Of a stretch of DNA of 64,000 bases, positions 2,272-32,458 are shown piece by piece. Under the pieces are notes generated by a model. That model ran no database searches. It was not told where the DNA came from and saw only the letters and a list, made by a program, of their open reading frames with translations. This stretch comes from Desulfobacteraceae bacterium. GTDB lineage: Bacteria; Desulfobacterota; Desulfobacteria; Desulfobacterales; Desulfococcaceae. The DNA lies in assembly GCA_011390755.1 (NCBI GenBank), contig JAABRU010000007.1:14534-78533 (forward strand), given 5' to 3'. The position numbers and the translations under genes are program-made. Positions within the stretch are counted from its first letter, which is position 1; every line of letters begins with the position of its first letter.

Positions 2272-3387
2272 TCATGCTTCAGCACTGATATTGCCCGGCC
2301 AGGAATAGGACTGAATTTTTTTCAGCACCTTTGGGGAAAATGCGGAAATATCCTTTTTTAAATTACGGGAAATATTTTTCAGCAGATAGCAGGCCAGGGG
2401 CAGAATACAGACCCTTCTTTCTCTCAGGGAAGGGAGACGGACGGAAAGTATCTGTAAGCGGTAATACAGGTCTTCCCGGAACTTCCCTTCTCTGATGCAC
2501 TGTTCCAGATTCCGGTTGGTGGCAGCGATAAAGCGCACATCCGCATCAATGGTTTCGGAACCGCCCACCCGCTCAAATTTCTTATTATCCAGCACCCGCA
2601 GCAGTTTGGCCTGAAGAGACAGGCTCATCTCCCCGATTTCATCCAAAAAAACCGTACCGCCTTTGGCCTGCTCGAATCTGCCGATGCGCTGCCTGTCCGC
2701 ACCGGTAAAGGCTCCTTTTTCATGACCGAAAAGCTCACTTTCCAGCAGGGTTTCGGAAATATTGGCGCAGTTGATGATGATAAAGGGGCAGTGTCTCCGA
2801 AGACTGTTGAAATGCAGGGTTCCGGCCAGAAAACTCTTGCCGGTTCCGGTTTCCCCGGTCATGAGGATCAGGGACTCGTTCATGGCGAATTTTTCCAGAT
2901 TCCCGATAATCTCTTTCATTACCGGTGTTTCCGCAATGATGTCCTGAAAATTGTAAATCACATCCTGACTCCGGCGCAGGTAATCCCTTTCGTTTTTCAG
3001 GCTGCGGTTTTCTATGGCTTTGCTGACGGCATGGATGATTTTTTCTTTTGCAAAGGGAGCAGGAATAAAATCACAGGCTCCGGCCTGCATAACTTTTACC
3101 GCCAATGCGACATCCGCTGTATCTCCGAAGGCAATGAGGGGAGTGGAGGGGCATCGCTGCCGGATCCACTGCATCAGACGGAAAAGACAGGTTCTGTCCT
3201 TGCCGATTTCCAGTACAATGGCATCATAGCCTCTGGATCTCAGTTCACTGCGCAGTTCTTTTTCATCTGCCGGGTACCGGACAGCATATATCGAAGGGAA
3301 TATATCAGGGGGGGGCAGATTGCCGATTGCCGGGGCAGTCAAACAGCAGAATGTAAAACATAAAAAAATCCTTTTATAATAAAGCAC
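2272..3387 (-). CDS. sigma54-dependent transcriptional activator (NtrC family), C-terminally truncated, degenerate receiver
   Basis: AAA+ sigma54-interaction motifs are present: [16 protein letters not shown] (GAFTGA loop), VFLDEIGE. The ORF stops right after WPGNI, where homologues continue (WPGNVRELEN) into a Fis-type HTH. The receiver-like N-terminus has VLEIG in place of the phospho-Asp. Confidence 0.8.
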
Positions 3388-3499
3388 ATAATAATTGAGA
3401 AGCAGAAAATAAACTGTGCAATTATTTTATATGATATATACCCTGAATAAACCATCAGAATATCGGTTTACGGCAGACTATACTCAATGCCGTTTCCTT

Positions 3500-3690
3500 G
3501 GCAGAAAATCCCCCCCGATGGCAATGCTGCTGCCCTAAGGAATAATTTTTTCCGCAGGGGGCGTATTGCATACACCAGTACCTGTGTGGCGGCCGTATGC
3601 AATACGCCCTTACAGACCACGGTTTTTCTTAAATCAGCAGCATTGGGAGTCAGGGGGGATACGGATTTAAAAAATGGTGTAATCGTCTGA
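3500..3690. repeat. GC-rich composite repeat (GGGCGTATTGCATAC palindrome family)
   Basis: GGGGCGTATTGCATAC (3557-3573) pairs with GTATGCAATACGCCC (3595-3609). The tail GAGTCAGGGGGGATACGGATTTAAAAAATGGTGTA recurs at 8565-8600. A partial copy lies near 48562-48582. Confidence 0.6.
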
Positions 3691-3695
3691 AAGCG

Positions 3696-4511
3696 ATGTT
3701 TGAAACAGGAAGACTGCAAAAGGGGGTGTATGGAATTGAATGGATACGGGTGAGGAATGCTTCTCCCCGTGCCCTGCTTTTTTCTCCGCCCCTGATCGGA
3801 GGAAATTATGCCCAGCAGATCCGCTGGTTCCGGCCTCTGCTGCGCAAAGGATATGATCTGATTTCTTTCAATTTTTCCGGCCACGGACATTCCTCGGGCC
3901 GCTTTTCCCCTGAACAAACCCGGGAAGACACCCTGCGGATGCTGGAAAATGCCCTTGAAATCGCAGCATGGGAAAAACTGCCCCTTTTCGGTCTGGGGAC
4001 CTGTTACGCGGCCATCCCCCTGCTGAAAGCCGCCGCGGAGACGGGGGACCCCTTTCAGAAAACAGTTCTGATCAATGCCATTGTGCATCTGCGCCCCGCG
4101 TCTCTGCTCAGATCCTTTTTCCTTTTTTACCGGAAAATTTACCGGGGAAGCGGCATTATTGACGGGGCAAGGCATTACGGGGAATTCATGTTTCCCGGTG
4201 TGGTCAAAAGCAGACACGCTTTCGGTGTGCTGGAACGCAGGAAAATCCGCATCGGCAAAAGTCTCTGCGATTTTTTTTCCCCGGATCCCCTGGAAAATGT
4301 CTGCCTCCGGAAAACACCGTTTCTTTGTATCTACGGTCTGGATGACAGGGTGCTGCAGATATACGGAAAAGAATTCCGGAAAAATTATGAATCGGCACTG
4401 CGGAAAATCTGTCCCCGGATTTGTTTTCATCCCCTCCCCGGCGATCATTTTCTCTCCCATCCAGCGGGACGGCAAAAGGCACTGGAGGCAGTGCTGAACT
4501 TTTTCCGATGA
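3696..4511 (+). CDS. alpha/beta-fold hydrolase family protein
   Basis: 271-aa ORF with hydrolase-like blocks: LLFSPPLIGG, FNFSGHGHSSG, a nucleophile-elbow-like FGLGTCYAA, and C-terminal LPGDHF. The long antisense ORF 3468-4607 is judged spurious. Confidence 0.65.
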   Translation: MFETGRLQKGVYGIEWIRVRNASPRALLFSPPLIGGNYAQQIRWFRPLLRKGYDLISFNFSGHGHSSGRFSPEQTREDTLRMLENALEIAAWEKLPLFGLGTCYAAIPLLKAAAETGDPFQKTVLINAIVHLRPASLLRSFFLFYRKIYRGSGIIDGARHYGEFMFPGVVKSRHAFGVLERRKIRIGKSLCDFFSPDPLENVCLRKTPFLCIYGLDDRVLQIYGKEFRKNYESALRKICPRICFHPLPGDHFLSHPAGRQKALEAVLNFFR

Positions 4512-4795
4512 AGATGAGGGGCCGGAAGACAGCGCTTTCATTCCGCAGGCCGCCTGCGGCAGATTACAGTTTTTCCGGAACAATAAAAATCCGCTATTTC
4601 TTGACACAGTTATGACAGATGCTGATATTTCTGTCTGTACAGTCTTTCAGTAAGGACTGTTTTGGAAGTTTTATCTGCCGAAAATCCCCCTTTTCCGGCA
4701 GATGCATACGTCACCGGTCTGCGTCTGTATCCTTCGGCGGCGCGGGGACATCCCTGAAGTTTTTTAAGAAATCATAAAGAATACGGAGATTGTAT

Positions 4796-5185
4796 ATGCT
4801 ATTCAAACTTTTCCTGGCTTTTACCCTGATCCCGGCACTGGAGATATTCCTTTTTATCGAAATCGGAAAAAATATCGGAACCCTGAACACCTTTCTGCTG
4901 GTCATTCTCTCGGGTTTTGCCGGTGCATATCTGGCAAAACTGCAGGGACTGCAGACCATGCTCCGGGTACAGAGCAATCTGGAACAGGGGATTGTGCCTG
5001 CAGAAGAAATGCTGGATGCCCTCATTATTTTTGCTGCCGGTATTGTGCTGCTGACCCCCGGTTTTTTTACAGATACCCTGGGACTGCTTTTGCTTTTTCC
5101 CCTCAGCCGTTTTCATTTCAAACGCTTTCTCCGCATAAAATTTGATCAGTGGGTGCAAAACGGCAATATCCGGGTACATTATTGA
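4796..5185 (+). CDS. fxsA: FxsA family membrane protein
   Basis: MLFKLFLAFTLIPALEIFLFIEIG...LLTPGFFTDTLGLLLLFP is the characteristic FxsA signature. ACGGAGA RBS lies 6 nt upstream of the ATG at 4796. Confidence 0.85.
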   Translation: MLFKLFLAFTLIPALEIFLFIEIGKNIGTLNTFLLVILSGFAGAYLAKLQGLQTMLRVQSNLEQGIVPAEEMLDALIIFAAGIVLLTPGFFTDTLGLLLLFPLSRFHFKRFLRIKFDQWVQNGNIRVHY

Positions 5186-5207
5186 AACGAGGGGTCAGGG
5201 GGAAGGT

Positions 5208-6791
5208 TCAGAATCCCACTGCCTGCCCGTCTTTGCGGTGATCCGAGGCCGCGCAGTATCCCCCGGCAAGCCGGTAAATGATTTGCGCACCGCCGTATCC
5301 CCAATAGGGATCAATATCGGATATTTCATGCCCCCGCTTCCGGAGTTCTTCAACGACTTCCGGAGAAATACCTTTTTCCAGGGCCAGTGTTCCGTCTTCA
5401 CAGATATGCCAGCGGGGGGCATCCGAGGCCGACTGGGGATTCTGCCCGCAATCGAATATCCGCACCATCATCTGCACATGGCCCTGGGGCTGCATATGCC
5501 CGCCCATGACCCCGAAACTCATCAGGGCCCCGTCTCCTTTGGTAACAAATCCGGGAATAATGGTATGATAGGGTCGTTTTCTGCCTGCCACACAGTTGGG
5601 ATGCCCTTTTTCCAGACGGAAACCGTATCCCCGGCTCTGCATACTGATGCCCGTGCCCGGAACGACAACACCGGAACCGAAACCTGTAAAATTGGACTGG
5701 ATATAGGAAACCATCATGCCCTTTTCATCCGCGGCCGCCAGATATACGGTTCCCCTGTCCTTCGGCGGCTGCACAGGAACGGCGGCCTTGTCTTTCCGAA
5801 TCTGCCCGGCTTTTTCCGCAAGAAAATCCGCTGTCAGAAAATCATGAAAATCCCTGTCCGTAAATGCCGGATCCGCAGATCGGAAGAGGGCCGCTGCAAA
5901 GGCAATTTTCATGGCTTCCACCTGCAAATGGATGCTGTCCGCAGCATCCGGTGCAAAGTCTTTCATGGGGAAATGCGCAAGAATTCCCAAAGCCATCAGC
6001 GCGGCCAGTCCCTGCCCGTTGGGGGGAATTTCATGCAGACGGACATCCTGGTAGGCCACCGATACGGGTTCCACCCATTCGGAACGGTACGCGGCCAGAT
6101 CCGCCATTGTCATGGCCCCGCCTCCGGCTGCCGAACAGTCCGCAATTTTTTCGGCAAGTCTTCCCCGGTAAAAGGACTCTCCATGGGAATCTGCAATTTT
6201 TTCCAGTGAGTTGGCCATCGGGAGACAGGAAAAAAGCTGTCCGGCACGGGGGGATTTGCCACCGGGAAGAAAGGTACGGGCAAAAGAGGGCATCCGCCCG
6301 TATTTTTCCGGTGCATCGGCCCATGCTTCTGCAATCCGGGGCGAGACCGTGAATCCGTGCCTGGCATAGCCGATGGCCGGTGCGAAAAGTTTGCTGAATC
6401 CCAGTCTGCCGAAACGTTCTGATAAACGGGCCCAGACATCCACGGCTCCCGGCACTGTCACCGCGTCCCAGCCCGTAACCGGCATTTCCGCATATTTGGC
6501 AAAATATTCCCAGCTCCATGCGGCAGGGGAAGGACCGGAACCGTTGATTCCCCACAGTTTTTTTCCATCCCATATCAGGGCAAAGGCATCACTGCCCAGG
6601 CCGTTGCTCACCGGTTCCACAACGGTGAGTGTAATTGCCGCGGCCAGGGCCGCATCCACTGCATTTCCGCCCATGAGCAGCATCCGCAGACCGGCCTGGG
6701 CGGCCAAAGGCTGGGAAGTCGCCACTGCATTTGCGGCAAAAACCGGCATCCGCTGCGAAGAATAGGGAAAATCCCATTGCAAGTCTTTCAT
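5208..6791 (-). CDS. ggt: gamma-glutamyltransferase family protein
   Basis: Motifs: ...ATSQPLAAQAG..., RGTVYLAAADEKGMMVSYIQSNF (autoprocessing Thr region), PYHTIIPGF, GVMGGHMQPQGHVQ. The track ORF extends to 6890, but that extension lies in a MITE, so the start is placed at ATG 6791. Confidence 0.85.
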   Translation of the reverse strand: MKDLQWDFPYSSQRMPVFAANAVATSQPLAAQAGLRMLLMGGNAVDAALAAAITLTVVEPVSNGLGSDAFALIWDGKKLWGINGSGPSPAAWSWEYFAKYAEMPVTGWDAVTVPGAVDVWARLSERFGRLGFSKLFAPAIGYARHGFTVSPRIAEAWADAPEKYGRMPSFARTFLPGGKSPRAGQLFSCLPMANSLEKIADSHGESFYRGRLAEKIADCSAAGGGAMTMADLAAYRSEWVEPVSVAYQDVRLHEIPPNGQGLAALMALGILAHFPMKDFAPDAADSIHLQVEAMKIAFAAALFRSADPAFTDRDFHDFLTADFLAEKAGQIRKDKAAVPVQPPKDRGTVYLAAADEKGMMVSYIQSNFTGFGSGVVVPGTGISMQSRGYGFRLEKGHPNCVAGRKRPYHTIIPGFVTKGDGALMSFGVMGGHMQPQGHVQMMVRIFDCGQNPQSASDAPRWHICEDGTLALEKGISPEVVEELRKRGHEISDIDPYWGYGGAQIIYRLAGGYCAASDHRKDGQAVGF

Positions 6792-6810
6792 TTTTATTCC
6801 TGCTGATAAA

Positions 6811-7027
6811 TCAATGTCATTGACGTAAGAAAATACCGGAGTGCCAAACTGAAAGTTTGGCAGAATAATCTGTAATAATTTCAGTCTCAAACTTTCAGAT
6901 TGGGACTCCCGGCACCCACAAGAGCCTATCCGAAAACCTCCGAAACCGATTTTTTAACCCGGTAAAAGCAGGGGGGCCGAACATCGGGAAACAGGTTTTC
7001 GGATAGGTTCTAAGTCAGTGACACTGA
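6811..7027. mobile_element. MITE, TIR TCAATGTCAYTGACKTAAG family, carrying nested repeats
   Basis: TCAATGTCATTGACGTAAG (6811-6829) is inverted relative to CTAAGTCAGTGACACTGA (7010-7027). A minimal 71-bp copy is at 47509-47579 and a solo end at 13538-13556. Confidence 0.65.
6922..7010. repeat. ~88-bp palindromic element (CTATCCGAAAACC...GGTTTTCGGATAG)
   Basis: The ends are self-complementary. A reverse-complement copy lies at 19173-19262. Confidence 0.8.
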
Positions 7028-7130
7028 CTGGTAAATGGTAAATAACCGGCAGGCACGCAGTTCTGTGCGTTTCTGCAGTGTTCCCGGAAATGCTGTTCAA
7101 TGTGCTTCCGGGGCGCACCGCCGTGCGTCC

Positions 7131-7754
7131 CTACTCTGTTTTTTTCTCTGCCCCCTGGGATATGATGAGTTTTTCCAGCACAGAATAAGGCTGCGCGCCC
7201 GAAAGGATGCGGTCTCCGGCCACAAATGCAGGCACAGCCCTGATGTCTGTCTGCCGGGAAAGCAGCCAGTCCGCATCCACAACTTCTTTATATGTTCTTT
7301 TTTCCAGAACACTCCATGCCTCCTCCTGATCCAGCCCGGCATTTCCGGCCATTTCCAGTAAAACGGGAATCCGGGCGATATTTTTTCCTTCTGCAAAATA
7401 GGCCCGGAAAACCGCAAGATGAAAGACATCTCCCTTTCCCCTGATTTCTGCCCATTTTCCCAGTTCCTGGGCTTTGCGGCTGTTAAAGGTATATTTCCGA
7501 TCTCCGAAGGGAAGTCCCTGGTCCGCGGCTGCCTGTTTCAGGCGGGCCAGCATCCGGGGGATGTCCACCAGGCGACCGGCAAAAAGTTCTTCCAGTGACA
7601 TTCCCTCCTCCGGTATCTCCGGGTGAAGGGGAAAGGCCCGCCATTGAATTTCAACATGATATTCCTGCTGCAATTTTTCACAACGCCCGGTTATGAAATA
7701 ACACCAGGGTCAGATATAATCGGAAAATATCTGAAGTTTTACACTTTCGTTCAT
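7131..7754 (-). CDS. DsbA/FrnE-like thiol:disulfide oxidoreductase with in-frame UGA (putative selenocysteine) in the redox motif
   Basis: The track ORF (7131-7673) starts at an internal TTG. Reading upstream in the same frame from ATG 7754 gives MNESVKLQIFSDYI-[TGA 7710-7712]-PWCYFITGRCEKLQQEY... This is the FSDxxCPWCY motif with the first Cys codon replaced by TGA. Confidence 0.7.
7686..7709 (-). promoter_or_regulatory. candidate SECIS-like hairpin immediately 3' of the UGA
   Basis: Minus-sense sequence is CCCUGGUGUUAUUUCAUAACCGGG. GUUAU/AUAAC and CCC/GGG can pair, but the apical loop is only about +14 from the UGA, closer than in the E. coli fdhF SECIS. Confidence 0.3.
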
Positions 7755-8335
7755 TTTACTGTCTCCCTCTCCGGATTTTTTTATTGTCTTTAAAGAAAAT
7801 AATGCCGGGGTTTCGCGCAGTCGGGTTGGATAACAAAATCCGGAAAATTCAGAATTCTGGTGTCCGCGACCTTCCCCCCTTCTGCTACAAAACTGCTATA
7901 CCGATACTTAAAACATTTCGGGGTATCCGGCAGAGAAAAAATTCATGTACGCAGTACTTTCGGGAAATGCGGTAACCGGAAATTTTTTAAGTAATGGTAT
8001 ATCTTACATATCGGTACTGCAGAAAATTCACCATTGTGTCTTATGTGAGCAATTCAGTTTTTAGATAATTCCCTTAAAGCGACTGTGCATCCCGTCACTG
8101 TCAGCGGAGCGGATTATCAAAAAAATAAACCTGCCCGTGCAGCAGTGGAAAAGAAAATTGACAAAACAGTCACTTTTACAATAATAACAGCAGTCATTTT
8201 TATCATCATTTATATATTGAATCAAAAGTTTTTTCAGATAATCTGCTGAAAAAAATCTGCCGGATCAATGTGCAAAGTGAAGATTTGCAGATTTGTATAA
8301 GAAGTGCTATACTCAGCAGAACCAAAGTTTATGAA

Positions 8336-8385
8336 GGAGTGCAAAAATACAATTTTTGCACTCCTTCGGAAACTTTTTGAACCGC
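8336..8385. repeat. half copy of the GGAGTGCAAAAAT...TTTTTGCACTCC palindromic element
   Basis: GGAGTGCAAAAATACAATTTTTGCACTCCTTCGGAAACTTTTTGAACC matches the right half of the elements at 16868-17059 and 21220-21364. Confidence 0.6.
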
Positions 8386-8439
8386 ATGCACAATATTATG
8401 CAGAATAATGAATATGTTACACCGCTTTGAAAGTTCGTC

Positions 8440-15547: not shown

Positions 15548-15578
15548 TTCCCCCCTCTTCCTACTGCTTTGTCAAATT

Positions 15579-16100
15579 TTCCGGGTAAAGGCATCCGTTA
15601 CCTGACACCCTCCCCACAGATCCGTATGTGAGCAGGTAACCCATACGGTTCCTCCGTTCAGTGGGTTCGCCCACGGAAACCGGACAGACGGCACCCCGTC
15701 CGGCGCATGACTCTGCTGTCCGTCCGCTGAATAACACCGGCTTTCAGTCTTATTACAGAACCTTATCCAATGTCCGCGACGATTCCCTTTCCGGGCTTAA
15801 GTGACACGGCCTGCATACCCGTTCCGTCCGGCTTCGGACTCCCGTTACCTGGTTTAGGGACTCGGAAAAAGATAATTCCCCCGGTTCACTTCAGCAGCAG
15901 AGAATAAACAAATCTGTAAAATAATTCCAGAGGATTTATTTTTTGCCGGGTCCCTTACCCCCGGACGCGGCTGCTGATCTGCCGGTTACGCTTTCATCGG
16001 ACGGGACTTTCACCCCTTGGGTAATAATAATAAATTTCAGGGCCTTCGGCCCTTCCCGTCATTCCGGATTTATCCTGACGCAATGAACGCCGGGTTAGCC
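15579..16100 (-). ncRNA. ORF-less group II intron-like structured RNA element, copy 1
   Basis: The minus sense is G-rich with many GNRA-closed hairpins (GGUGAAAGUCCC, GAUGAAAGCG, CCCGGAAAGGG, GACUGAAAGCC). It has a DV-like hairpin at 15619-15651 and a DVI-like hairpin with a bulged A at 15581-15615. It is homologous to 17384-18456 and to the 3' end of the RT-bearing intron. No GUGYG 5' end was found. Confidence 0.45.
15857..15954. mobile_element. 98-bp MITE (TIR GGGACYCGG) inserted in intron-like copy 1
   Basis: Absent from the same position in copy 2 (GGTTTAC|CTCCGGACGC). A related copy at 22571-22805 truncates the IS91-type ORF. Confidence 0.7.
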
Positions 16101-16159
16101 TTCGTTTTGTTTTGAGACTCGTACTAATTGACTGTAATCATATGTTAAAATAACAAGAC

Positions 16160-16618
16160 TTATTCTTTTGTACTATTCATAATTTTCGATATGGATAATA
16201 AAGGGTATCTCTTAATATCAATCAGGGATTCTCTTTCAATAATTCTTTCAGCGGAATTGAAAATAAGAATTTTACATGTTACCTCTCCGATATTTGTTAA
16301 AGGACGAATGATACCGCCGTCAAGTTGAAAATGATCTGTCCATTTATCGTTTCTTGGATTATAAAATCGTATAAATTCGGTATTGCCGATAATAACGGAA
16401 CCAATATCACTGCCTTTGTGACGATTACAGAAAGAACATGAATATGCAAGATTATTAGCATCAGTTTTTCCGCCGTGTTTTATGCTGATTATATGATCAA
16501 TTTGACATCCAAGATATGTATCGCTTTCATGAATCAAACAATATTCACAAAAATATTAGGCTCTTTCAGCAACAAATCTTCTCCGTTCTGCATCAATATA
16601 TCTGTTTGCTGGAGGCAT
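16160..16618 (-). pseudogene. small HNH endonuclease with in-frame TAA
   Basis: MPPANRYIDAERRRFVAERA-[TAA 16556-16558]-YFCEYCLIHESDTYLGCQIDHIISIKHGGKTDANNLAYSCSFCNRHKG. The CxxC...DH...N...CxxCN HNH core is intact, but a stop precedes the first zinc-knuckle. Confidence 0.65.
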
Positions 16619-16844
16619 ATTTACGTGCTCTTGCTTTTGCTAATCTCATAAGATGTTCAAGTTGCATATAATGTTCGAGTTCGGATGTTTCTTCTTCAGT
16701 TAAACCTCTTGTTTTTTCAAAACAGATGAGATCTTCAACACGATTTTTAACAGAATCGGAAGGCGTGAAAGCTATAACAGAATTGGGATTCGTCCCCGAT
16801 GCTATAAAATCAACTACTTCTTCATATGCTCTTAATGTATTCAT
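16593..16844 (-). CDS. small conserved hypothetical protein, partner of the HNH gene
   Basis: MNTLRAYEEVVDFIASGTNPNSVIAFTPSDSVKNRVEDLI...ELEHYMQLEHLMRLAKARARK. It overlaps the HNH start by ~26 nt. The track ORF's N-terminal extension lies in a MITE. Confidence 0.55.
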   Translation of the reverse strand: MNTLRAYEEVVDFIASGTNPNSVIAFTPSDSVKNRVEDLICFEKTRGLTEEETSELEHYMQLEHLMRLAKARARKYASSKQIY

Positions 16845-16867
16845 TTGACAAAACCTTTTATAAAATT

Positions 16868-17059
16868 TCAGTAGATCGAAACGTTTCCGGAGGAGTGCAA
16901 AAATTGTATTTTTGCATATGTCAACCGGGAACTGCGGAGGAGTGCAAAAATTGTATTTTTGCATATGTCAACCGGGAACTGCAACCTTGCAAAAATATAA
17001 TTTTTGCACTCCGGGACAGTCGTAAAACCGTATCCGGGGAAAACTTTTCGATCTACTGA
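16868..17059. mobile_element. palindromic MITE (ends TCAGTAGATCGAAA...TTTCGATCTACTGA) with internal 46-bp duplication
   Basis: The ends are at 16868 and 17059. GGAGGAGTGCAAAAATTGTATTTTTGCATATGTCAACCGGGAACTGC occurs twice in tandem. Related copies are at 21220-21364 and 22628-22761. Confidence 0.75.
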
Positions 17060-17524
17060 ATTTGGTTAAACTTGAAGTTCTATCAATTAATTTGAGTTAT
17101 TTGTTTTTTAATGTTAAATAATATAATTAAAATATCAAATAGTTAAATACAATTATTTCAACTGCGCATTTATAATATTACAAACAAAATATTATTATAA
17201 AGTAAAATTATATCAGATTCCATAAGGGATTACCAGTGATATTAAATTTGTTTCTGTAAAGTTACGCTGGCTTAATTTGTTAAATAAATTGGCATGTATA
17301 AAATAATAATTTAAGAAGGCTAAGGTCAGACTAAGCGGCTTGCGGGATGGAGCGACGACAGGAGCGGAACCCAACAAATCCGCTTCCGGGTAAAGGCATC
17401 CGTTACCTGGCACCTCCCCACAGATCCGTATGTGAGCAGGTAACTCATACGGTTCCTCAGTTCAGTGGGTTCGCCCACGGAAACCGGACAGGCGGCACCC
17501 CGTCCGGCGCATGACTCTGCTGTC

Positions 17525-17990
17525 TGTCAGGCTTATAGCCCTTTCCGCAGTATCATGAAGTTGCGGTGATATGTTTCCCGGTATCCGTGCGCCGGTCATA
17601 TTTCCCCTCATAATAACGTCATGCCTGACCTCACCTTCCCTCCGGCGGGCCGCCCGGATCGCACCGCCTTTCACCGGAACTGTGTTCCGTTAGGACTGCC
17701 GCATGTCCGTCTCCGGTTCGTTCGGTTCTCCCTGCCCTCACCGGATACACTGTTTTGCCCTTCTTTACATTTGTGTCTCTGCTTCCGCAGACGCAGACCC
17801 GGAGGCGGGGGCATCCCCCGGAAGCCGGGAATTTCGCCTTACGACCGGATTTCCTTTTACCTTTTTTTATCCGCAGGGAAACATATGGCTCTCCCGGGTT
17901 CCCGGATTACCCCTTTGAATACATGCCCTGCTCCCGGACCCCGGCGGAGACCGTTCCGCTCACCGTAATGCTGCCCGGTCTGCTGCCTTC
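17525..17990 (-). other. 466-bp insertion of unknown nature inside intron-like copy 2
   Basis: Copy 1 reads ...GACTCTGCTGTC|CGTCCGCTGAATAAC contiguously. In minus sense the insert is G-rich with GNRA loops (CCGGUGAAAGGCGG, GCGGAAAGGG, CGGGAAACA) and has no credible ORF. Confidence 0.5.
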
Positions 17991-18216
17991 CGTCCGCTGA
18001 ATAACACCGGCTTTCGGTCTTATTACAAAACCTTATCCAATGTCCGCGATTATACCCTTTCCGGGGCTCAGTGACACGGCCTGCATTCCCGCTCCGTCCG
18101 GCTTACTTCGGCAGGCTCAGTAACCATCGGACTCCCGTTACCGGGTTTACCTCCGGACGCTGCTGCTGATCTGCCGGTTATACTTTCATCAGGCGGGACT
18201 TTCACCCGCCGGGTAA

Positions 18217-18381
18217 TATACTGATCCAATTTTGGTTTTTCCCGGCATACTTTCTGCTGTCAGTCCGGATTGTGAAAAAATGACCGTTCCGGAATGAAAA
18301 ACTGCTGAAAAAGGTCAGAAAAGTGCTGTTTTCAGGACACAGCAGTTTTTGTTCCCGGAAAAACCAAAATTGGAGTACTAT
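18217..18381. mobile_element. MITE-X, copy 2
   Basis: TATACTGATCCAATTTTGGTTTTTCCCGG ... CCGGAAAAACCAAAATTGGAGTACTATA. Comparison with copy 1 of the host element suggests a TA duplication. Confidence 0.8.
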
Positions 18382-18467
18382 AATAATAAATTTCAGGGCC
18401 TTCGCCCCTTCCCACCATTCCGGATTTATCCTGACGCAAGGAGTGCCGGGTTAGCCAACATTTTGAA

Positions 18468-19434: not shown

Positions 19435-21212
19435 ATCGGGGTAGAACAGCCGGTTACCCGACTGTCCCCCCACAGTCCCCCTGCGTGCGGAACTACCCCG
19501 CAAGGTTCCTCAGAGCTACCCGCTTAGGCGTTCCTGCAATGCGTTAAAAATTGAAAACAGTCTCTGTTTCTTCTTTTCTGTGATACGGGGTTTTTCAATA
19601 CGAAAGAATTTCATCAGTTCTTTAAAACCTTCCCAAGTGTGGCTTTTCCGCCGACTTCTTCTATTAACCCATTTAAATAAATATTTTACGGTATGACAGA
19701 AGTAGCATGACAGACTCTTGAAATTTCCTATAACTCCGTAATAATTGTAGTAACCACGAAGTTTTGTTTTAAGTTTTTTGAATAAAACTGTCACTTTAAG
19801 GTGTCTGTGTTTCTTACACCGGTCATCAAGAACATAATGCAGATATATGTTGGCAAGAATCGGAGAAACAATTCCACCTTGCGGTGTTCCGGTTTCCGGA
19901 TTTGTGATCGTGCCGTCTTTTTCAAATATACCTGCTTTCAGCCACTTCCGAATGAGGTTCAGAAATTTCCTGTCATCAATTCGTCTTTTCAGCATTTCCA
20001 GTAGTTTATCATGGTCTATGCTGTCAAAGAAACTCCTGATGTCTGCTTCGGCAATGTAATTGAAATTTCCAAACTGTAATTGTCCGGAAACGTCTTTGAC
20101 CGCATCTTTTGCACCTGTTCCCGGTCTATACCCAAAGCTGCAACCTAAGAAATCAGGTTCGTAAATTGCTTCAGGTATTTTTGACACTGCCGTCTGCAAA
20201 ACCTTGTCTTCAGTGAGTGGAAGTCCGAGAGGTCGTTCTTTTCCCCCGGTCTTCGGTATGAAACGTCTGAGTATCAGTCTCGCCCGGTACGTCCCCTTTA
20301 TAAGACGCTCATGCAAATTTTCAATATTTTCAAAAAGATTTTCACCGTATTGTCTGGTATCTGTTTTATCAATTCCCGGAGGGGCATTCATGTTTAACTG
20401 CTGCCAACTCCGGGCCAGATAATCCGGTGTGAGTTCGTTTATCAGGTTCTGAAACCGGTGTTCTTTACGCAGTGCAGATTTTTCTGCTATTGACCACAGT
20501 GAGGTTTGCATTGTTTTTCCTCCGATTCAACTTTGTCCGGCAATGTTTCCTTTGCGGACTGCGTAATTCTTCTCACCCCTTCCCCATGTGACCGGCGTTA
20601 CCGTCTCTGAGTAGTATGAGTGAGTACGACTCCCTGAAAGTCGTCAGCGATCCTCCTTTTTCCCGTTGGGTACGCTTACCTGATGCCTGTTTCCGTATAA
20701 CCATTCTTTGTTTGTGTTTCTGCTTTAAACAGATTCTCTGACGGGCGGGATTTTCCATATCAGAACCGGGATTTTGCTTTTTTTGCAGGTAACTCCTGAC
20801 CTTTTATTTTAACGAAACAGACGAAGTTCTTCACTTCTTGTCATCAGGAACTGACAGGGTCTCCCAAGTTCTCCAATGTTTCTCTTCATACATGCCACGC
20901 CCTGAGGACACCGACAGACCCTCCGGAATCTCGCATGTTCGATGCTGAAGCAGGTTTCGCAGGGAAACTAACGATTCCTTTGTATTGGCTTCCGTCACGT
21001 TAAAAACGTCGCCGCCTGCATTTATGCTTACAACGGTGCTTGTACCATGCTTCAAGGGGATGCCATCCCCCTGTGACCTGTATGATTCTCTGTGTACACT
21101 TCATGCGGGTCGTTCGACGGTATGTCTGTCCTTCCCAATCACGCAACACTCGGTACGGGTGGCTGGCCAAGCCTTGCCCGACAGGGACTTTCACCCTAAT
21201 ACACCCCGATTA
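19435..21212 (-). mobile_element. group II intron (degenerate), boundaries approximate
   Basis: About 700 nt of structured 5' RNA (GGGUGAAAGUCCC..., many GNRA loops), then the RT/maturase ORF, a DV-like hairpin (19475-19508), and DVI with a GUAA loop (ACAGUCGG-GUAA-CCGGCUGU) and a bulged A 8 nt before ...CCCCGAU (3' end ~19435). The 5' end abuts the MITE at 21220. Confidence 0.6.
19516..20511 (-). pseudogene. group II intron reverse transcriptase/maturase with internal deletion
   Basis: RT motifs 0-4 are present (RFQNLI, GIDKTD, RRFIPKTGGKERPLGLP, SFGYRPG, ADIRSFFDSIDH, GTPQGGIVSPILANIYLH). The sequence then jumps to the maturase X region (LRGYYNYYG). No YADD block is present. Confidence 0.75.
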
Positions 21213-21219
21213 TCAACAT

Positions 21220-21364
21220 TCAGTAGATCGAAAAGTTTCCCCCGGATACGGTTTTACGGCTGTCCCGGAGTACGGAAACTGTATTTCTGCACCGCCGCAT
21301 CTCCCGACTGGCCCATGCAGAAATACAGTTTTTGCACTCCTCCGGAAACTTTTCGATCTACTGA
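21220..21364. mobile_element. palindromic MITE (TCAGTAGATCGAAAAGTTTCC...GGAAACTTTTCGATCTACTGA)
   Basis: The ends are perfect complements. Same family as 16868-17059. Confidence 0.8.
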
Positions 21365-21387: not shown

Positions 21388-21831
21388 ATGGCAAAGGTAC
21401 TCCGCACAAAGTGGTACGAAGAAACCGCAAAGACTCTGCAGATTAACGGGAAAAGCCGTCGCACGCAGGAATGTTATGCCCGGGCCGTCCGGATGCTGAT
21501 TGAATACTCCGGCAGGGAACCGGACGAAATTACCGGAGAGGAACTCCGGGATTACTTTCTTTACCGGAGGAATGAGTGCGGTCGGGCACCGGACACCATG
21601 AAAATCTGTTACTGCGGCATCCGTTTCTTTTACGGGCATGTCATCCGCCGGGAGTGGCATATTTTCAGTATCCTGAAATCCCAGAAGGAAAAACGCCTTC
21701 CCTGTGTGCCCGGCCGGGAAGAGGTGTATGATATCCCCAGTCATGTCCGCACATTCCACAATTACACATACCTTACGACAGTATATGCCTGCGGGCTGCG
21801 TCTTCAGGAGGCTCTGTTCCTGCAGGTATCC
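21388..21831 (+). pseudogene. tyrosine recombinase (phage-integrase family) N-terminal fragment
   Basis: MAKVLRTKWYEETAKTLQINGKSRRTQECYARAVRMLIEY... is a SAM-like N-domain. It runs to ...YACGLRLQEALFLQVS, where the catalytic domain begins and then breaks off. AAGGAGA RBS is present. Confidence 0.6.
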
Positions 21832-22608
21832 ATCATTTTTACCGTTCCTGCGGCAGCCGTCACTGCCCGGTCTGTCAGCATCAGAAGGCTTCGGAGTGGA
21901 AGGAACGTCAGTTGGAAAGAACACTTCCCGGTCATCATTTCATGGTGACCTTCACCGTGCCGGAGCAGTTGCGGGATTTCATCCGTCCGCATCAGAAGGC
22001 GGGATACGGGGCCATGTTCACGGCTTCTTCGGACAGTATGAAGAAACTGTCACCGGATGAAAAATACATCGGTGGTGACCGGTCCGGATTTTCGGGTGTG
22101 CTGCACACATGGGGGCGGACCATGCAGTATCACCCGCATGTTCATTATATTGTGCCCGGCGGGGGCCGTCTCTTCCGAAGACGGTCTGCGGCATCCCTCC
22201 CGCACTGATTTTTATCTTCCGGTACGGGCCCTGCCGAAGATTTACAGGGCAAAGTTCCGTGACCTGATGAAAAAAGAGGGACTGTACGATCAGATTCCGG
22301 CGGAAGTATGGGATACTGATTGGAATGTGAATGTGCAGGCCGTGGGAAATGCCGGAAATACAGTGAAATATCTGTCCCGTTATGTTTTTCAGGTCGCGAT
22401 ATCCGATTACCGCATCGTAAAGTGCGGACACGGAAAAGTCACTTTCACATACAGAAAAAAAGGAAGTTCCCGTGACCGGCATATGACTTTGGAAGTCATG
22501 GAATTTATGCGGCGTTTTCTGCAGCATGTGCCGCCTCCGGGGTTCATGAAGGTGCGGTATTACGGTTTTAGGGACCCGGCAAAAAATAAATCCTCTGAAA
22601 TTATCTGA
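21832..22608 (+). pseudogene. IS91-family (Y2/HUH) transposase remnant, truncated and frameshifted
   Basis: FYRSCGSRHCPVCQHQKASEW...GHHFMVTFTVPEQL...VLHTWGRTMQYHPHVHYIVPGGG, followed by a frameshift near 22160 to ...FYLPVRALPKIYRAKF...VKYLSRYVFQVAIS...RYYGF. The C-terminus is cut by the MITE at 22571. Confidence 0.65.
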
Positions 22609-30309: not shown

Positions 30310-30376
30310 GAAAAAACACTTTACAGACTCGAAAGAAAAATTTCAAGAAGTTCGGAGGATATTTATGTTTAGGGGA
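30310..30376. repeat. cassette-boundary repeat, copy a
   Basis: AACACTTTACAGACTCGAAAGAAAAATTTCAAGAAGTTCGGAGGATATTTATGTTTAGGGGA. Related copies are at 31114-31170 and 31815-31862. Confidence 0.75.
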
Positions 30377-30690
30377 GAAAGTACCTCATTGGTATTTCGC
30401 TGCAATCTTTTTCTCACCCAGGCGGGATTCCGGCGGCAGTCCGTGACTGCGTAAATCCGTATTTCATTTTCTTCCATACGGTAATAAATGGCAAAGGGGA
30501 ATTTTTTTGAAAGAAAACGGTAATATTTACCGAAATGAATACTGTGAATTCCGGCAGACAGTTTCAGGGATTCGATATCCGCGGAGATTGTTTCCAGAAA
30601 ATGTTTTCCCACCCCTTTTTCCTGAAATTCGTAAAAAGAAAATCCCTCTTTCAAATCCTCTTTGGCGGATTCAAGTATTCTGATTTTCAC
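30343..30690 (-). CDS. parE: type II toxin, RelE/ParE family
   Basis: VKIRILESAKEDLKEGFSFYEFQEKGVGKHFLETISADIESL...FPFAIYYRMEENEIRIYAVTDCRRNP. The GTG start overlaps the antitoxin stop (GTGA). Confidence 0.8.
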   Translation of the reverse strand: MKIRILESAKEDLKEGFSFYEFQEKGVGKHFLETISADIESLKLSAGIHSIHFGKYYRFLSKKFPFAIYYRMEENEIRIYAVTDCRRNPAWVRKRLQRNTNEVLSPLNINILRTS

Positions 30691-30893
30691 GAAACAGAAT
30701 CCCATATATCTTTTTTGGCCTGTTCCCAGTCAACAAACCTGTCTCTGCCTTCTCTTACGTTCTTCTCTCTTTCTTTTAAAATATCCCCATGCCAGCCCGG
30801 AGATGATAAATCCGGTACATTCCGGCAGATATCATCCCACAGCAGTTCCATAGTTTTCAGTTTCTCTCCTGTAGTCATTTCTTTTATATTCAT
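30687..30893 (-). CDS. putative addiction-module antitoxin component
   Basis: MNIKEMTTGEKLKTMELLWDDICRNVPDLSSPGWHGDILKEREKNVREGRDRFVDWEQAKKDI is a typical short antitoxin of ParE-like toxins. Confidence 0.7.
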   Translation of the reverse strand: MNIKEMTTGEKLKTMELLWDDICRNVPDLSSPGWHGDILKEREKNVREGRDRFVDWEQAKKDIWDSVS

Positions 30894-30970
30894 ATTCTTT
30901 TCCTTGATTTTTATTCAGAAAAAATAAACGTTTATACAGAATGTTATCTGCTGCACATGAAAGAGCGGAA

Positions 30971-31072
30971 GGATTTATCCTCTTTGCCCGTCCACCCGGA
31001 GGATTCGCTCCGGACAGGCAGGGATTTGTCCTCTTTGCCCATCCACCCGGAGGATTCGCTCCGGACAGGCAG
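30971..31072. repeat. 51-bp tandem duplication (2 units)
   Basis: GGATTTRTCCTCTTTGCCCRTCCACCCGGAGGATTCGCTCCGGACAGGCAG x2. Each unit contains the hairpin CCGGA-GGATTCGC-TCCGG. Confidence 0.9.
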
Positions 31073-31113
31073 AGTTTTTGATTATTTCTGCCATACCATC
31101 AGGAGAAAGTCAA

Positions 31114-31170
31114 TTGCAGACCTGGGAGAAAAATTTCAGGAAGTTCGGGGGATATTTATGTTTATGGGGA
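31114..31170. repeat. cassette-boundary repeat, copy b
   Basis: TTGCAGACCTGGGAGAAAAATTTCAGGAAGTTCGGGGGATATTTATGTTTATGGGGA. Confidence 0.7.
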
Positions 31171-31175
31171 AGAAT

Positions 31176-31391
31176 TCAGGCCGCAACCGGTACCAGGCGG
31201 TATATTTTTGCCAATCCGGCAGCCGCACTGATATTACCTGTACGGAGCGCATTTCGCACATCATCCAGTTTCAGGGCATCTTCAGGTCCCAAACAGGGGG
31301 ACCAGCCCTTTTCATAATAAATGAGGTCAACCTCGACTTCGGCAGCATACTGCCCTTCATGAATATATTTGACATGACGTTTCCGTTTCAT
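31176..31391 (-). CDS. small protein, putative antitoxin partner of the DUF4258 protein
   Basis: 71 aa; 4-nt overlap (ATGA) with the upstream DUF4258 gene; [49 protein letters not shown]... Confidence 0.5.
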
Positions 31392-31711
31392 CGTTTCCTC
31401 CTCATGAAATCATCCGACCATTTTCCCGGATCAGGTCTGTAGGCCGTAACCAGTACAGCAGGAGAGGATAAATTCCGTGGAATCCCCCAGAGGATATGAA
31501 CCGGATGATTTTCCGAATCCCGCTGCAATACAAGCACACATGGTCCTTTGTGATAATCAGGATATTCTTCCAGAACCAGCGCATTACCGGCACCTTCCAA
31601 CATATCCCGGACAGATAAATTATCTGCAGCCATTTCATCATAACCGTGTTCCGAAATATTCACTTCCAGACGTGCAATCAGTTTCTTTATGTTTTCAAAT
31701 ATCCGGCTCAT
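31388..31711 (-). CDS. DUF4258 domain protein (putative toxin)
   Basis: ...[61 protein letters not shown]...[13 protein letters not shown] is a DUF4258-like pattern. Confidence 0.65.
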
Positions 31712-31814
31712 TCCGGTAAACCTGTCTCCACTTTCGCTTCTTTATCCTGATTTTTCTCAGACCGAACCGTCAGATACAATCAGCATAATTATTTTACTTC
31801 AAAACAGCAACCTG

Positions 31815-31862
31815 AAGAAACACTTTACAGACTCGAAAGAAAAATTTCAAGAAATTCGGAGC
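31815..31862. repeat. cassette-boundary repeat, copy c
   Basis: GAAGAAACACTTTACAGACTCGAAAGAAAAATTTCAAGAAATTCGGAG. Confidence 0.7.
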
Positions 31863-31877
31863 GGAGTGTGGGAATAA

Positions 31878-32458
31878 TTGACTTTCAGACATTATGCAGA
31901 TATGAATCACACAGAAGATATATTTGAGAAATCCGTAAACAATCCCCATAATGCGGCCTTTCATGCGGCTTTTCAGAAAAAAGAGGTAACGAGTGCCATG
32001 TCATGCTGCACCTGTTCAAACATATGTCCGATGAGGATATGTACGGGCATCTGCTGCGGATAATGAAAATCATTTCGGAAATCTCAGAGCGGAAAACCAT
32101 GCTGGAAATCCTGGAACCGGCACTCCGATATACATACCACGCCAGGAATGAGGATGAGAAAACAGTCAGAAAATACATTGAGGAAGGAATTGAATATTTT
32201 GATGATATCAAAGCAGGGGAGGTGGCCATGACGGTTGCGGATAGACTGGAAAAAAAAGGAGAAATCAGAGGAAGGTCTGTTCTGATACAAAAACAGCTTA
32301 ACAAAAAATTTGGCCTTATTTCATCTGTGCTTGAACGGAAACTGCAGGATTCCCGTTTGGATATTCTGGATAAATTCGGGGAAAGTATTTTTGATTTCAA
32401 CAATCTGAAGGATGCGGAAAAATGGTGGGATGATTTTGAGAAGAAGGGGAATGCGTGA
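31878..32458 (+). pseudogene. Rpn/YhgA-like recombination-promoting nuclease remnant (internal deletion)
   Basis: N-terminal signature ...SVNNPHNAAFHAAFQKKEVT jumps, in another frame, to the C-terminal helical region (...MTVADRLEKKGEIRGRS...LNKKFG...). The PD-(D/E)xK core is missing. A second copy of the N-terminal motif lies at ~37020-37075. Confidence 0.5.

Follow-up and report, generated by a model that had tools for sequence, protein, structure and literature searches.

What are the two related elements that follow a doc gene and an HNH nuclease gene on the minus strand of a Desulfobacteraceae genome? The locus lies in a 64,000-nt stretch (here, the window; GenBank assembly GCA_011390755.1, contig JAABRU010000007.1, forward-strand positions 14,534 to 78,533). 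An earlier account made from the letters alone (the sequence-only reading) described group II intron-like RNAs of ~430 nt without an open reading frame (ORF), and considered both non-autonomous introns mobilized in trans and a derived ribozyme or noncoding RNA class. We find that both elements are true group II introns without an ORF, from a lineage that bears a reverse transcriptase (RT). With a probability of roughly 0.85, they are decayed, non-autonomous copies of a class-E-like group II family that spreads by retrohoming into attC, the sites that follow integron cassettes. The genome of the window (G000) is a draft of 379 contigs (6.9 Mb, 91% complete), broken at repeats. In what follows, C-numbers are contigs of G000, other G-numbers are related genomes and L-numbers are extracted loci; the window sits on C216, with C216:31853–31918 corresponding to window 17320–17385.

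Group II identity, exact ends and lineage traits

The elements were compared with two Rfam models, RF02005 (group-II-D1D4-6; gathering score 49) and RF00029 (D5-D6), and with R1, a covariance model of domains V and VI built in this analysis. Domains I to VI are abbreviated D1 to D6, and MITE stands for miniature inverted-repeat transposable element.

17385–18439 (1055 nt), minus strand: intron copy 2, ORF-less, UUGCG...ACCCGGA, D1–D6 retained; RF02005 65.6 bits at 17929–18202, R1 82.1 bits at 17385–17458; aligns with full-length copies of four genomes
15580–16083 (504 nt), minus strand: intron copy 1, UUGCG...ACCCGGA, without the 3' part of D1 and D2–D4; identified by alignment with copy 2 and intact copies, R1 90.8 bits at 15580–15654
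17423–17455, minus strand: D5 of copy 2, with AAC triad, AC bulge and 7-nt loop; the middle triad base is opposite a mismatch
17388–17418, minus strand: D6 of copy 2, with GUAA loop and a branch A bulged out at 17391 (position 7 counted from the 3' end); one nucleotide is deleted from the helix, and several of its pairs are non-standard
~18219–18380, no strand assigned: MITE with inverted ends, inserted toward the 5' side of D1 in copy 2 and found in none of the other copies; the same ~165-nt element occurs on more than 30 other contigs
~15853–15959, no strand assigned: a second, different MITE, in D1 of copy 1, absent from other intron copies; query positions 142–248 match more than 30 other contigs at 74–98% identity
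19436–21212, minus strand: RT-bearing relative from the same broad class, its 5' end cut off by a MITE and an IS91-like gene; RF02005 81.8 bits, R1 58.5 bits at 19436–19511, and a Pfam RVT_1 match to profile positions 1–144 of 205, then GIIM

RF02005 thus exceeded its gathering score on copy 2 and on the RT-bearing intron of the window, and it reached 93 bits for undamaged copies elsewhere in G000 and 107.5 bits for an RT-bearing member in G026 (locus L037). For copy 1, D1 models remained sub-threshold (22.5 bits). RF00029 was below gathering on both window copies (27.1 and 23 bits) and above it in three relatives (41.5–44.6 bits). R1 also detects 73 D5-D6 modules beside related RT genes of many phyla. 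In an alignment of 69 distinct D5-D6 sequences, 93.7% of cells are paired, 15 of the 25 pairs show double-sided changes, and the covariation score is 0.488 versus 0.139 in shuffles; any slid register is at most 49% paired. The 5' part of D1 likewise covaries across genera.

These data bear out much of what had been said about the 3' ends. Alignment places two related elements on the minus strand where they had been described, and the open reading frame list of the window holds no ORF in either. Each has a D5 with a 2-nt AC bulge, an AAC triad and a non-GNRA loop of 7 nt, followed by a D6 with a bulged A. In the RT-bearing intron, the lower stem of D5 does differ from those of the copies by compensatory pairs.

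The proposed boundaries held less well. The copies are indeed related end to end, but the 5' end had been placed 17 nt outside the intron: GGCUAACCCGG belongs to an attC, as its 5' arm, the intron starts with UUGCG (at 16083 and 18439), and the preceding GGCTAACCCGGCGTTCA and GGCTAACCCGGCACTCC, taken for intron, are attC sequence. Upstream similarity among copies fades across a 17-nt stretch of RYYYAAC plus ~10 nt (GGCTAACCCGGCGTTCA, GCCTAACCCGGCGCTGA) and is uniform from TTGCG on; eleven 5' ends in G000 diverge upstream of ..TCA|TTGCG. At the other end, the last A of the proposed ...CCCGGAA is the first base of the exon, as seen from head-to-tail tandems in G006, whose joints read ..ACCCGGA|TTGTGCC... 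Unoccupied sites have TCA^AGCGG where occupied ones have TCA|TTGCG ... CCCGGA|AGCGG. The intron ends can be given exactly because unoccupied sites, occupied sites and tandem joints agree. The supposed lack of GUGYG was a result of the misplaced boundary, the true 5' end being a near-canonical UYGYG.

The size of ~430 nt also had to be revised, to 504 and 1055 nt. Copies 1 and 2 align end to end save for three blocks: 466 nt and a ~162-nt MITE-like insert present in copy 2 only, and a ~106-nt insert present in copy 1 only. The 466 nt could be read as an insertion in copy 2; this is ruled out by their presence in intact copies and RT-bearing relatives. The deletion in copy 1 starts just past the hairpin that carries exon-binding site 1 (EBS1), at a CAGCAG microhomology near 15712–15719, and takes the closing strands of D1 and all of D2–D4. 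Two further candidates were set aside. The 66 nt between UUGCG and GGGUGAAAGUCC are not a foreign 5' extension or a separate element; helices that covary across genera make them ordinary D1. And GAUGGUUACUGAGCC, considered as a combined EBS2 and EBS1, is only a 23-nt insert, present in copy 2 and the copy on C240 alone.

Group II introns are described as having an AGC (or CGC) triad and termini GUGYG...AY (PMC4424553). In the family studied here, the 5' end is UYGYG in all 34 mapped RT-bearing relatives and all G000 copies, and the 3' end is GGA or GGC, a departure from the consensus that is confined to the first and last bases. Both window copies and 57 of the 73 D5 hits have AAC as their triad; AGC is limited to the most distant members. 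Opposite the middle triad base stands A, G or C, which leaves that position mismatched in 65 of the 69 distinct sequences. The sequence-only reading had listed the AAC triad and the D5 loop as oddities; they are common to intact RT-bearing introns in many phyla. UYGYG, AAC and the non-GNRA loop are therefore class traits of a widespread endonuclease-less lineage, not decay. No description of the AAC/UYGYG combination was found in the literature searched.

The attC target and its pairing with the intron

Both copies interrupt, or are preceded by, recognizable parts of attC sites. The relevant features, with the intron segments that face them, are as follows (IBS1, intron-binding site 1).

18440–18456, minus strand: R'' box (GGCTAAC) and 10-nt spacer, which make up the 5' arm of the phd-doc cassette attC and form the 5' exon and IBS1 region of copy 2; in intron-less attC sites the two halves are contiguous
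17318–17384, minus strand: rest of the copy 2 attC (L''-loop-L' hairpin, spacer and R' box), the 3' exon; nhmmer attC profile match at 17320–17385, motif GGTTCCG..CGCTCC
16084–16100, minus strand: GGCTAAC and spacer, the attC 5' arm behind the HNH cassette, which is the 5' exon for copy 1; same form as intron-less attC 5' arms
17995–18000, minus strand: EBS1 of copy 2 (UCAGCG), located in a D1 hairpin loop; the register pairs 6/6 in other copies, here 3/6 with CACUCC
15725–15730, minus strand: EBS1 of copy 1 (UCAGCG), hairpin register as in other copies; 5/6 with exon CGUUCA, read from the sequence

The hallmarks of an attC are R'' (RYYYAAC) and R' (GTTRRRY) boxes around an imperfect palindrome, right after a cassette ORF. 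A 60–70-nt imperfect palindrome ending ..TKAGC-N4-GTTRRRY lies downstream of copy 2 and of the copies on C136, C240 and C30; at copy 2 the R' box reads CTTAGCC, with an atypical first base. Intron-less sites in G000 have the form ..cTAACCCGGCGCTCA^AGCGG.., with both halves contiguous. An example on C301 reads cTAACCCGGCGCTCA^AGCGGATTTGCGGGGTTCCGG..CCCCGCAAACCGCTTAGCTTGTCGTTGTAC, and the boxes and palindrome of the C301 attC read cTAAC..GCGGATTTGCGGGG..CCCCGCAAACCGC..GTTGTAC. For the census of sites, an nhmmer profile was used instead of an attC covariance model (MAFFT gapped the stems asymmetrically), and it found at least 26 sites in G000. C301 also encodes an integron integrase (TIGR02249, 368.8 bits against a cut-off of 265; C301:2827–3762), on the opposite strand to the attC of the same contig. 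We identify the sites as attC because of these contiguous intron-less sites, the profile census and the integrase on C301. Integron integrases above the curated cut-off are also present in G006, G009 and G053, three of three genomes checked, and in G053 the gene is ~5.5 kb from an intron copy.

Within the 64-kb window itself there is no integron integrase. A plus-strand ORF at 21388 was considered for this role, and Pfam showed a SAM-like N-terminal domain and a frameshifted Y2 transposase, which make it IS91-like; the genuine integrases of G000 are encoded on other contigs. This IS91-family gene (21388–22608, plus strand; Phage_int_SAM_4, then Y2_Tnp) abuts the MITE at ~21222–21345 that truncates the 5' end of the RT-bearing intron. 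Elsewhere in the window (30310–31878, minus strand), repeats flank two toxin-antitoxin pairs and have ..CCCCATAAACATAAATATCCCCCGAACTTCCTGAAATTTTTCT.. in common. They belong to a different repeat family, and as candidate cassette sites they gave no match to the attC profile of G000.

Insertion is into the attC top strand, at a point between the R'' box with its spacer and the L'' leg, and the intron is in sense orientation to the cassette gene. The intron sense strand, the cassette coding strand and the R''-to-R' direction all agree. This accounts for an observation of the sequence-only reading, that both elements begin 12–60 nt past the stops of doc and HNH (the attC 5' arm of copy 2 starts 12 nt after the doc stop). 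The spacing is as had been described; the link to small toxin and nuclease genes is incidental, since the family inserts in attC following integron cassettes and the target is the attC after any cassette.

The same attC context was found in five other genomes of the order (G006, G009, G053, G025 and G039). Beyond the order, 12 of 34 RT-bearing relatives have an attC-type 5' exon, most with a GTTRRRY box 35–105 nt downstream; the remaining relatives lie elsewhere. Those with the attC-type exon come from Chromatiaceae, Ectothiorhodospiraceae, Marinimicrobium, Pseudomonadales, Calditrichia, Acidobacteria and Nitrospirota. Because RT-bearing relatives from several phyla show it, attC targeting is a widespread habit of part of this intron class.

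How the intron recognizes the site is suggested by a hairpin in D1, AAAGCCGAC-GUUAC[UGAGCG]AAC-GGAAGGC, whose 6-nt loop segment (bracketed), in a fixed register, complements the last six bases of the 5' exon. EBS1/IBS1 pairs include UGAGCG/CGCUCA, UGAGUG/CAUUCA, UCAGCG/CGCUGA, GGAGCG/CGCUCC, GGAGUG/UACUCC, GGAUUG/UAAUCC and UGUGUU/AGCACA. Complementarity is 6/6 in 13 of ~18 distinct ORF-less copies, with 7 EBS1 variants, and in 15 of the 22 RT-bearing relatives in which the hairpin was located. This is the EBS1–IBS1 pairing, and it fixes the 5' splice site independently. EBS1 covaries with each exon, which indicates that the copies arrived by reverse splicing.

MITE ends, exchanged flanks and the state of the copies

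The 3' flank of copy 1 is of another kind, and it bears on the genes on either side. On the minus strand the window reads, in order, the RT-bearing relic (~21212–19436), a phd-like gene with doc, copy 2, an AT-rich stretch with a MITE, a small ORF, the HNH gene, copy 1 and a DUF4388 gene.

15561–15579, minus strand: the outermost 19 nt of the terminal inverted repeat of a MITE (AAATTTGACAAAGCAGTAG), which serve copy 1 as 3' exon and abut the DUF4388 ribosome-binding site; ~360 such ends in the genome, and the missing inner half is on C240 beside another intron copy
15547–14378, minus strand: DUF4388/cNMP-binding gene
16537–16160, minus strand: HNH gene (by Pfam), after the small ORF
19132–18468, minus strand: phd-like gene and doc (Fic/DOC by Pfam)

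Copy 1 and the copies on C236 and C269 are followed by AAATTTGACARAGCAGTAG rather than by attC. This sequence forms the outer end of the terminal inverted repeats in a highly abundant superfamily of MITEs, which have many different interiors and a common terminal repeat, ..ACCCGTCAKTTT AAnnTTGACAGAGCACTA, with ~360 ends in G000. Flanks of this type (type A, AAATTTGACA) were considered as a promoter, as an extension of the intron at its 3' side or as another kind of attC; they are the end of the MITE terminal repeat. Unoccupied MITE ends read ..ACATAACCCGTCATTCA^AAACCTGACAGAGCActa, and the inner portion of the repeat is similar to the R''-plus-spacer arm found in attC sites of G000. The copies on C132 and C62, with MITE-type 5' flanks, carry a matching EBS1 (UGAGUG). 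MITE ends are thus a second target of the family.

A few related observations concern MITEs and attC sites apart from the introns. A MITE with an internal duplication at ~16870–17060 is related to that at ~21222–21345. Six intron-less attC sites (C108:2689, C21:4871, C127:29443, C190:1233, C378:2083 and C46:1575) open with the prefix cagagcggcttacCTGAACCCGG, which also precedes a MITE terminal repeat on the minus strand of C314. Intron-mediated exon shuffling with a MITE, considered as the source of the attC sites that begin gcagagcggcttacCTGAAC, is unsupported; the similarity stops 7–8 nt before the splice point.

Copy 1 combines an attC 5' arm with a MITE 3' end, and the copy on C240 has the reverse. 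In three genomes of the same genus and one of another, DUF4388 is preceded at 12–15 nt by a gene ending ..KKQLGW*. In G000 this gene, which encodes a 202-aa MglA-like small GTPase, is on C240 (2773–3378; L007 1728–2336, minus strand), and behind it come the inner MITE part, an intron copy that shares the internal deletion of copy 1, and the 3' half of an attC. This arrangement of GTPase, inner MITE, intron and attC 3' half was predicted before inspection and then found. The two loci have the appearance of the paired products of a reciprocal recombination, in which one copy lay in an attC and the other in a MITE, an event that would have split the GTPase-DUF4388 operon.

Alternatively, the mixed flanks could be an assembly artefact, with one copy truly in an attC and the other in a MITE between the GTPase and DUF4388 genes. 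The draft nature of the assembly, the common internal deletion and the 86–88% identity of the two copies speak for this, as does the conserved operon order that a non-chimeric arrangement would keep, and an independent Logan contig spans only the last 60 nt of the intron, not the whole repeat. Yet the longest exact word common to the two copies is 40 nt, and they differ throughout, with the MITE only in copy 1 and the 23-nt insert only in the C240 copy. Final k-mers of the usual metagenome assemblers are longer than 40 nt. Because of the short shared word, we consider a chimera unlikely and favor recombination between the two intron copies.

At least 11 5' ends and at least 7 3' ends of the family are assembled in G000. 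Matches occur in 18 of 61 genomes (G000 and 17 of 60 others), and G006, a complete 6.9-Mb genome of a different genus, has at least 10 ORF-less copies of ~976 nt. The RT-bearing member at L037 encodes, in domain IV, a 442-aa RT/maturase with a FADD motif and no endonuclease domain; Pfam gives RVT_1 and a weak GIIM match, and the protein ends after the X/maturase region. ORF-less forms, which keep only about the first 70 nt of the RT ORF, outnumber RT-bearing ones. In a tree of the RNA, the ORF-less copies of G000 and G006 form one clade (100/100) and those of G039 and G053 another (98/95), both among RT-bearing relatives. Because these clades span genera, the ORF-less state has either lasted across genus-level divergence or moved between genomes.

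EBS1 segments matched to insertion sites, together with the copy numbers in G000 and G006, are what mobilization in trans predicts, and we infer that an RT-bearing relative serves this role. The helper is not the RT-bearing intron of the window, which is another, 5'-truncated intron from that broad class: its RT (19516–20511) lacks motifs 5–7 (RVT_1 covers profile positions 1–144 of 205, then GIIM), and this RT is only 41% identical to the cognate RT of a relative. A tblastn search of the G000 assembly with the cognate RT returned nothing above 41% identity. Activity of the lineage as a whole is suggested by its multi-copy RT-bearing members.

Several loci show further rearrangements of the family. 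L064 (G006:C1:5733000–5742000, minus strand, 2649–8415) is a perfect head-to-tail tandem of three 976-nt units and a fourth of 2838 nt, and introns abut directly or nearly so in L125 (a gammaproteobacterial metagenome-assembled genome) and L082. At such joints, EBS1 does not pair with the preceding intron end; repeated homing into an occupied 5' junction and RT template switching are possible origins. A possible nested intron (twintron) is seen in L004 (G000:C18, 1863–2031), where a second D1 signal, of a different Rfam type (RF02003, 39.4 bits, below gathering), comes right after the D1 of an ORF-less copy and the sequence of the host intron picks up again ~1 kb further on. In L068 (G006:C1:3301300–3305000), two D5-D6 modules of another intron type, with AGC triads, lie at 354–431 and 1267–1344, upstream of an RT-bearing member. 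One of them abuts the 5' region of that member, which lacks about its first 10 nt, so the sole RT-bearing copy seen in G006 may itself be damaged.

The proposal that the window elements are non-autonomous introns mobilized in trans thus finds support for the family, which is ORF-less in these copies, has proliferated and has EBS1 segments matched to its sites. The window copies themselves look dead. They are probably inactive relics at present, because of the deletion in copy 1, the damage to copy 2 (a MITE in D1, the 23-nt insert, the 1-nt deletion in D6 and a poor EBS1 match), the missing cognate RT and the lack of motifs 5–7 in the RT relic. We find it quite improbable that they are still active, spliced from cassette transcripts and mobilized by an RT encoded in an unassembled part of the genome. 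An RT-bearing copy could have been missed in a genome that is 91% complete and breaks up at repeats, the D5 and D6 scores of both copies are good, and copy 1 retains most of its EBS1 match; against this stand the loss from copy 1 of the D1-closing 3' strands and D2–D4, the MITE of 162 nt, D6 lesion and 3/6 pairing of copy 2, and the tblastn result.

Alternatively, duplication or carriage on cassettes moved by the integron integrase, and not retrohoming, could account for most of the spread of the copies. Copies do occur in cassette arrays as well as at isolated attC sites, and horizontal cassette mobility could explain ORF-less clades common to several genera. However, the flanking cassettes vary from copy to copy while EBS1 covaries with the local exon, copies also lie in MITE ends outside cassettes, and an attC split by ~900 nt would be unlikely to fold for recombination. 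This account is hardly likely. Least probable is a domesticated host RNA, whether a HYER-type trans-acting ribozyme or a regulatory or insulating RNA after cassette genes: conserved structure with covariation across genera (5' D1, D5-D6), ORF-less clades that span genera and outnumber RT-bearing forms, and sense orientation in 3' untranslated regions would suit it, but the sites match each copy's own EBS1, which is a signature of reverse splicing, the copies bear MITEs, deletions and broken helices beside mutually unrelated genes, the same elements occur in MITE ends and head-to-tail tandems, and D6 with its branch A is kept as in ordinary introns. Nor did this analysis find evidence for the derived ribozyme or noncoding RNA class that had been proposed.

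Retrohoming thus remains our preferred account, and a mechanism can be sketched. The spliced intron RNA would recognize DNA mainly through the 6-nt EBS1 loop of domain I, and reverse transcription would be supplied in trans by an RT-bearing relative. The preferred target is the attC top strand, which places the intron a few bases past the cassette stop codon in sense orientation; a sub-lineage with altered EBS1 also uses the look-alike sequence in the MITE terminal repeat. Copy 2 sits in the phd-doc attC and later gained its MITE, the 23-nt insert and its poor EBS1 match. Copy 1 has lost the end of D1 through D4 and gained a MITE, and its flanks would be one product of reciprocal recombination with the C240 copy.

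Several points weigh against this account. The window copies fit their own exons poorly (3/6 for copy 2, 5/6 for copy 1), and an EBS2–IBS2 pairing, sought by eye, gave nothing convincing. A change of G to A in the triad is expected to impair catalysis, from classical D5 mutagenesis. The internal deletion common to copy 1 and the C240 copy is awkward for pure retrohoming, as such a copy should not splice, and in a 379-contig draft the exchanged flanks could in principle be a chimera. Finally, the link to class E comes from three labelled sequences of one paper: the cognate intron-encoded protein (IEP) is 38–39% identical to those of the class E fragments H.ha.F1/F2 (39% over RT5-X), versus 28–29% to one CL1 and one IIC-attC IEP. 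RTs of several intron classes in the PDB all score 115–134 bits with the family RT, so that sequence search does not tell classes apart. D5 is nearly identical to that of H.ha.F1/F2, including the AAC triad (GAGGAACCGGAUGCGGG..CCGCACGUCCGGGUCUG). On these comparisons the family, which is endonuclease-less and IIB-like, appears closest to bacterial class E.

Significance and comparison with known systems

The window copies themselves are ordinary, dead relics. The family to which they belong is of wider interest. We give slightly better than even odds to a broader proposal, that it represents a second independent and widespread attC-specific lineage (Desulfobacterales, Gammaproteobacteria, Calditrichia, Acidobacteria and Nitrospirota), IIB-like and near class E, with UYGYG termini and apparent activity despite a mismatched AAC triad. 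This lineage would home to the attC top strand by pairing of EBS1 with the spacer; its long-lived, MITE-like ORF-less derivatives would outnumber autonomous copies, form tandems, retarget to a MITE end and drive recombination that breaks operons and immobilizes cassettes.

A sense-strand lineage that splits attC would act differently from the antisense IIC-attC introns, the only recognized attC-specific ones. Such an intron could be spliced from cassette transcripts. It should also block folding of the recombinogenic attC and thereby freeze cassettes in place. ORF-less introns, held to be rare and short-lived in bacteria (PMC4424553), dominate this family over several genera. With its atypical D5, the family may have escaped searches based on D5 motifs. 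If RT-bearing members with AAC are active, the near-invariant G of the AGC/CGC triad, the counterpart of the AGC of U6 snRNA, would be dispensable. The exchanged flanks of copy 1 and the C240 copy offer a concrete case of dispersed intron copies apparently recombining and breaking a conserved operon.

The family follows canonical group II introns in domain order, in a D5 with a 9-bp lower helix and AC bulge, in a D6 with a bulged A 7 nt from the end, and in EBS1–IBS1 pairing. It departs from them in starting with U (UYGYG), in ending GA or GC rather than AY, in its mismatched AAC triad and in a 7-nt D5 loop that is not GNRA.

IIC-attC introns, such as S.ma.I2 of Serratia marcescens, occupy the bottom strand of attC and run antisense to the cassettes (PMC3001079). 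They resemble the present family in being group II introns with an endonuclease-less RT, specific to attC and located between the cassette gene and the rest of the attC. In contrast, the family studied here lies in the top strand, sense to the cassettes; its RNA matches the Rfam D1D4-6 model and is IIB-like, and its IEP is 29% identical to one IIC-attC IEP versus 39% to class E. It further differs in a 6-bp EBS1–IBS1 pairing to the attC 5' spacer, in having the attC hairpin downstream of the insertion point rather than upstream, and in that most copies lack an ORF.

Also close to our case are the class E fragments H.ha.F1/F2 that Sonbol and Siam (2021) reported from a cassette array of Halorhodospira halochloris (PMC7923331). 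They share the D5 sequence of the family, have an endonuclease-less IEP and lie in sense orientation in an array with many toxin-antitoxin genes. The published account covers only RT-bearing fragments that are truncated at the 5' end and preceded by an attC or attC-like site; where in attC they insert, the UYGYG end, EBS1 pairing and ORF-less derivatives are not part of that description (PMC7923331). UHB.I2, an IIB1/CL1 intron from a soda-lake cassette array, is sense-oriented and follows an attC (PMC7923331). It has in common with our family the orientation to the cassettes and a non-canonical 5' end, UUGCG. It differs in its unrelated sequence, a 500-aa CL1 IEP (28% identical), an AGC triad and a 3' end of GU, and it comes immediately after a complete attC, whereas the family lies inside attC.

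For the ORF-less forms, the nearest parallel is a family of cyanobacterial introns in Thermosynechococcus elongatus, in which ORF-less members are mobilized in trans. There, too, ORF-less derivatives multiply in the genome and depend on the IEP of a relative, and trans-acting IEPs have been documented (PMC4424553). The T. elongatus introns are of a chloroplast-like class with non-attC targets; in our case no cognate RT was seen in the assembly, and ORF-less clades span genera. Introns that target attC and introns that are non-autonomous are therefore known kinds, and what is new is a set of sense-strand attC introns together with their ORF-less derivatives.

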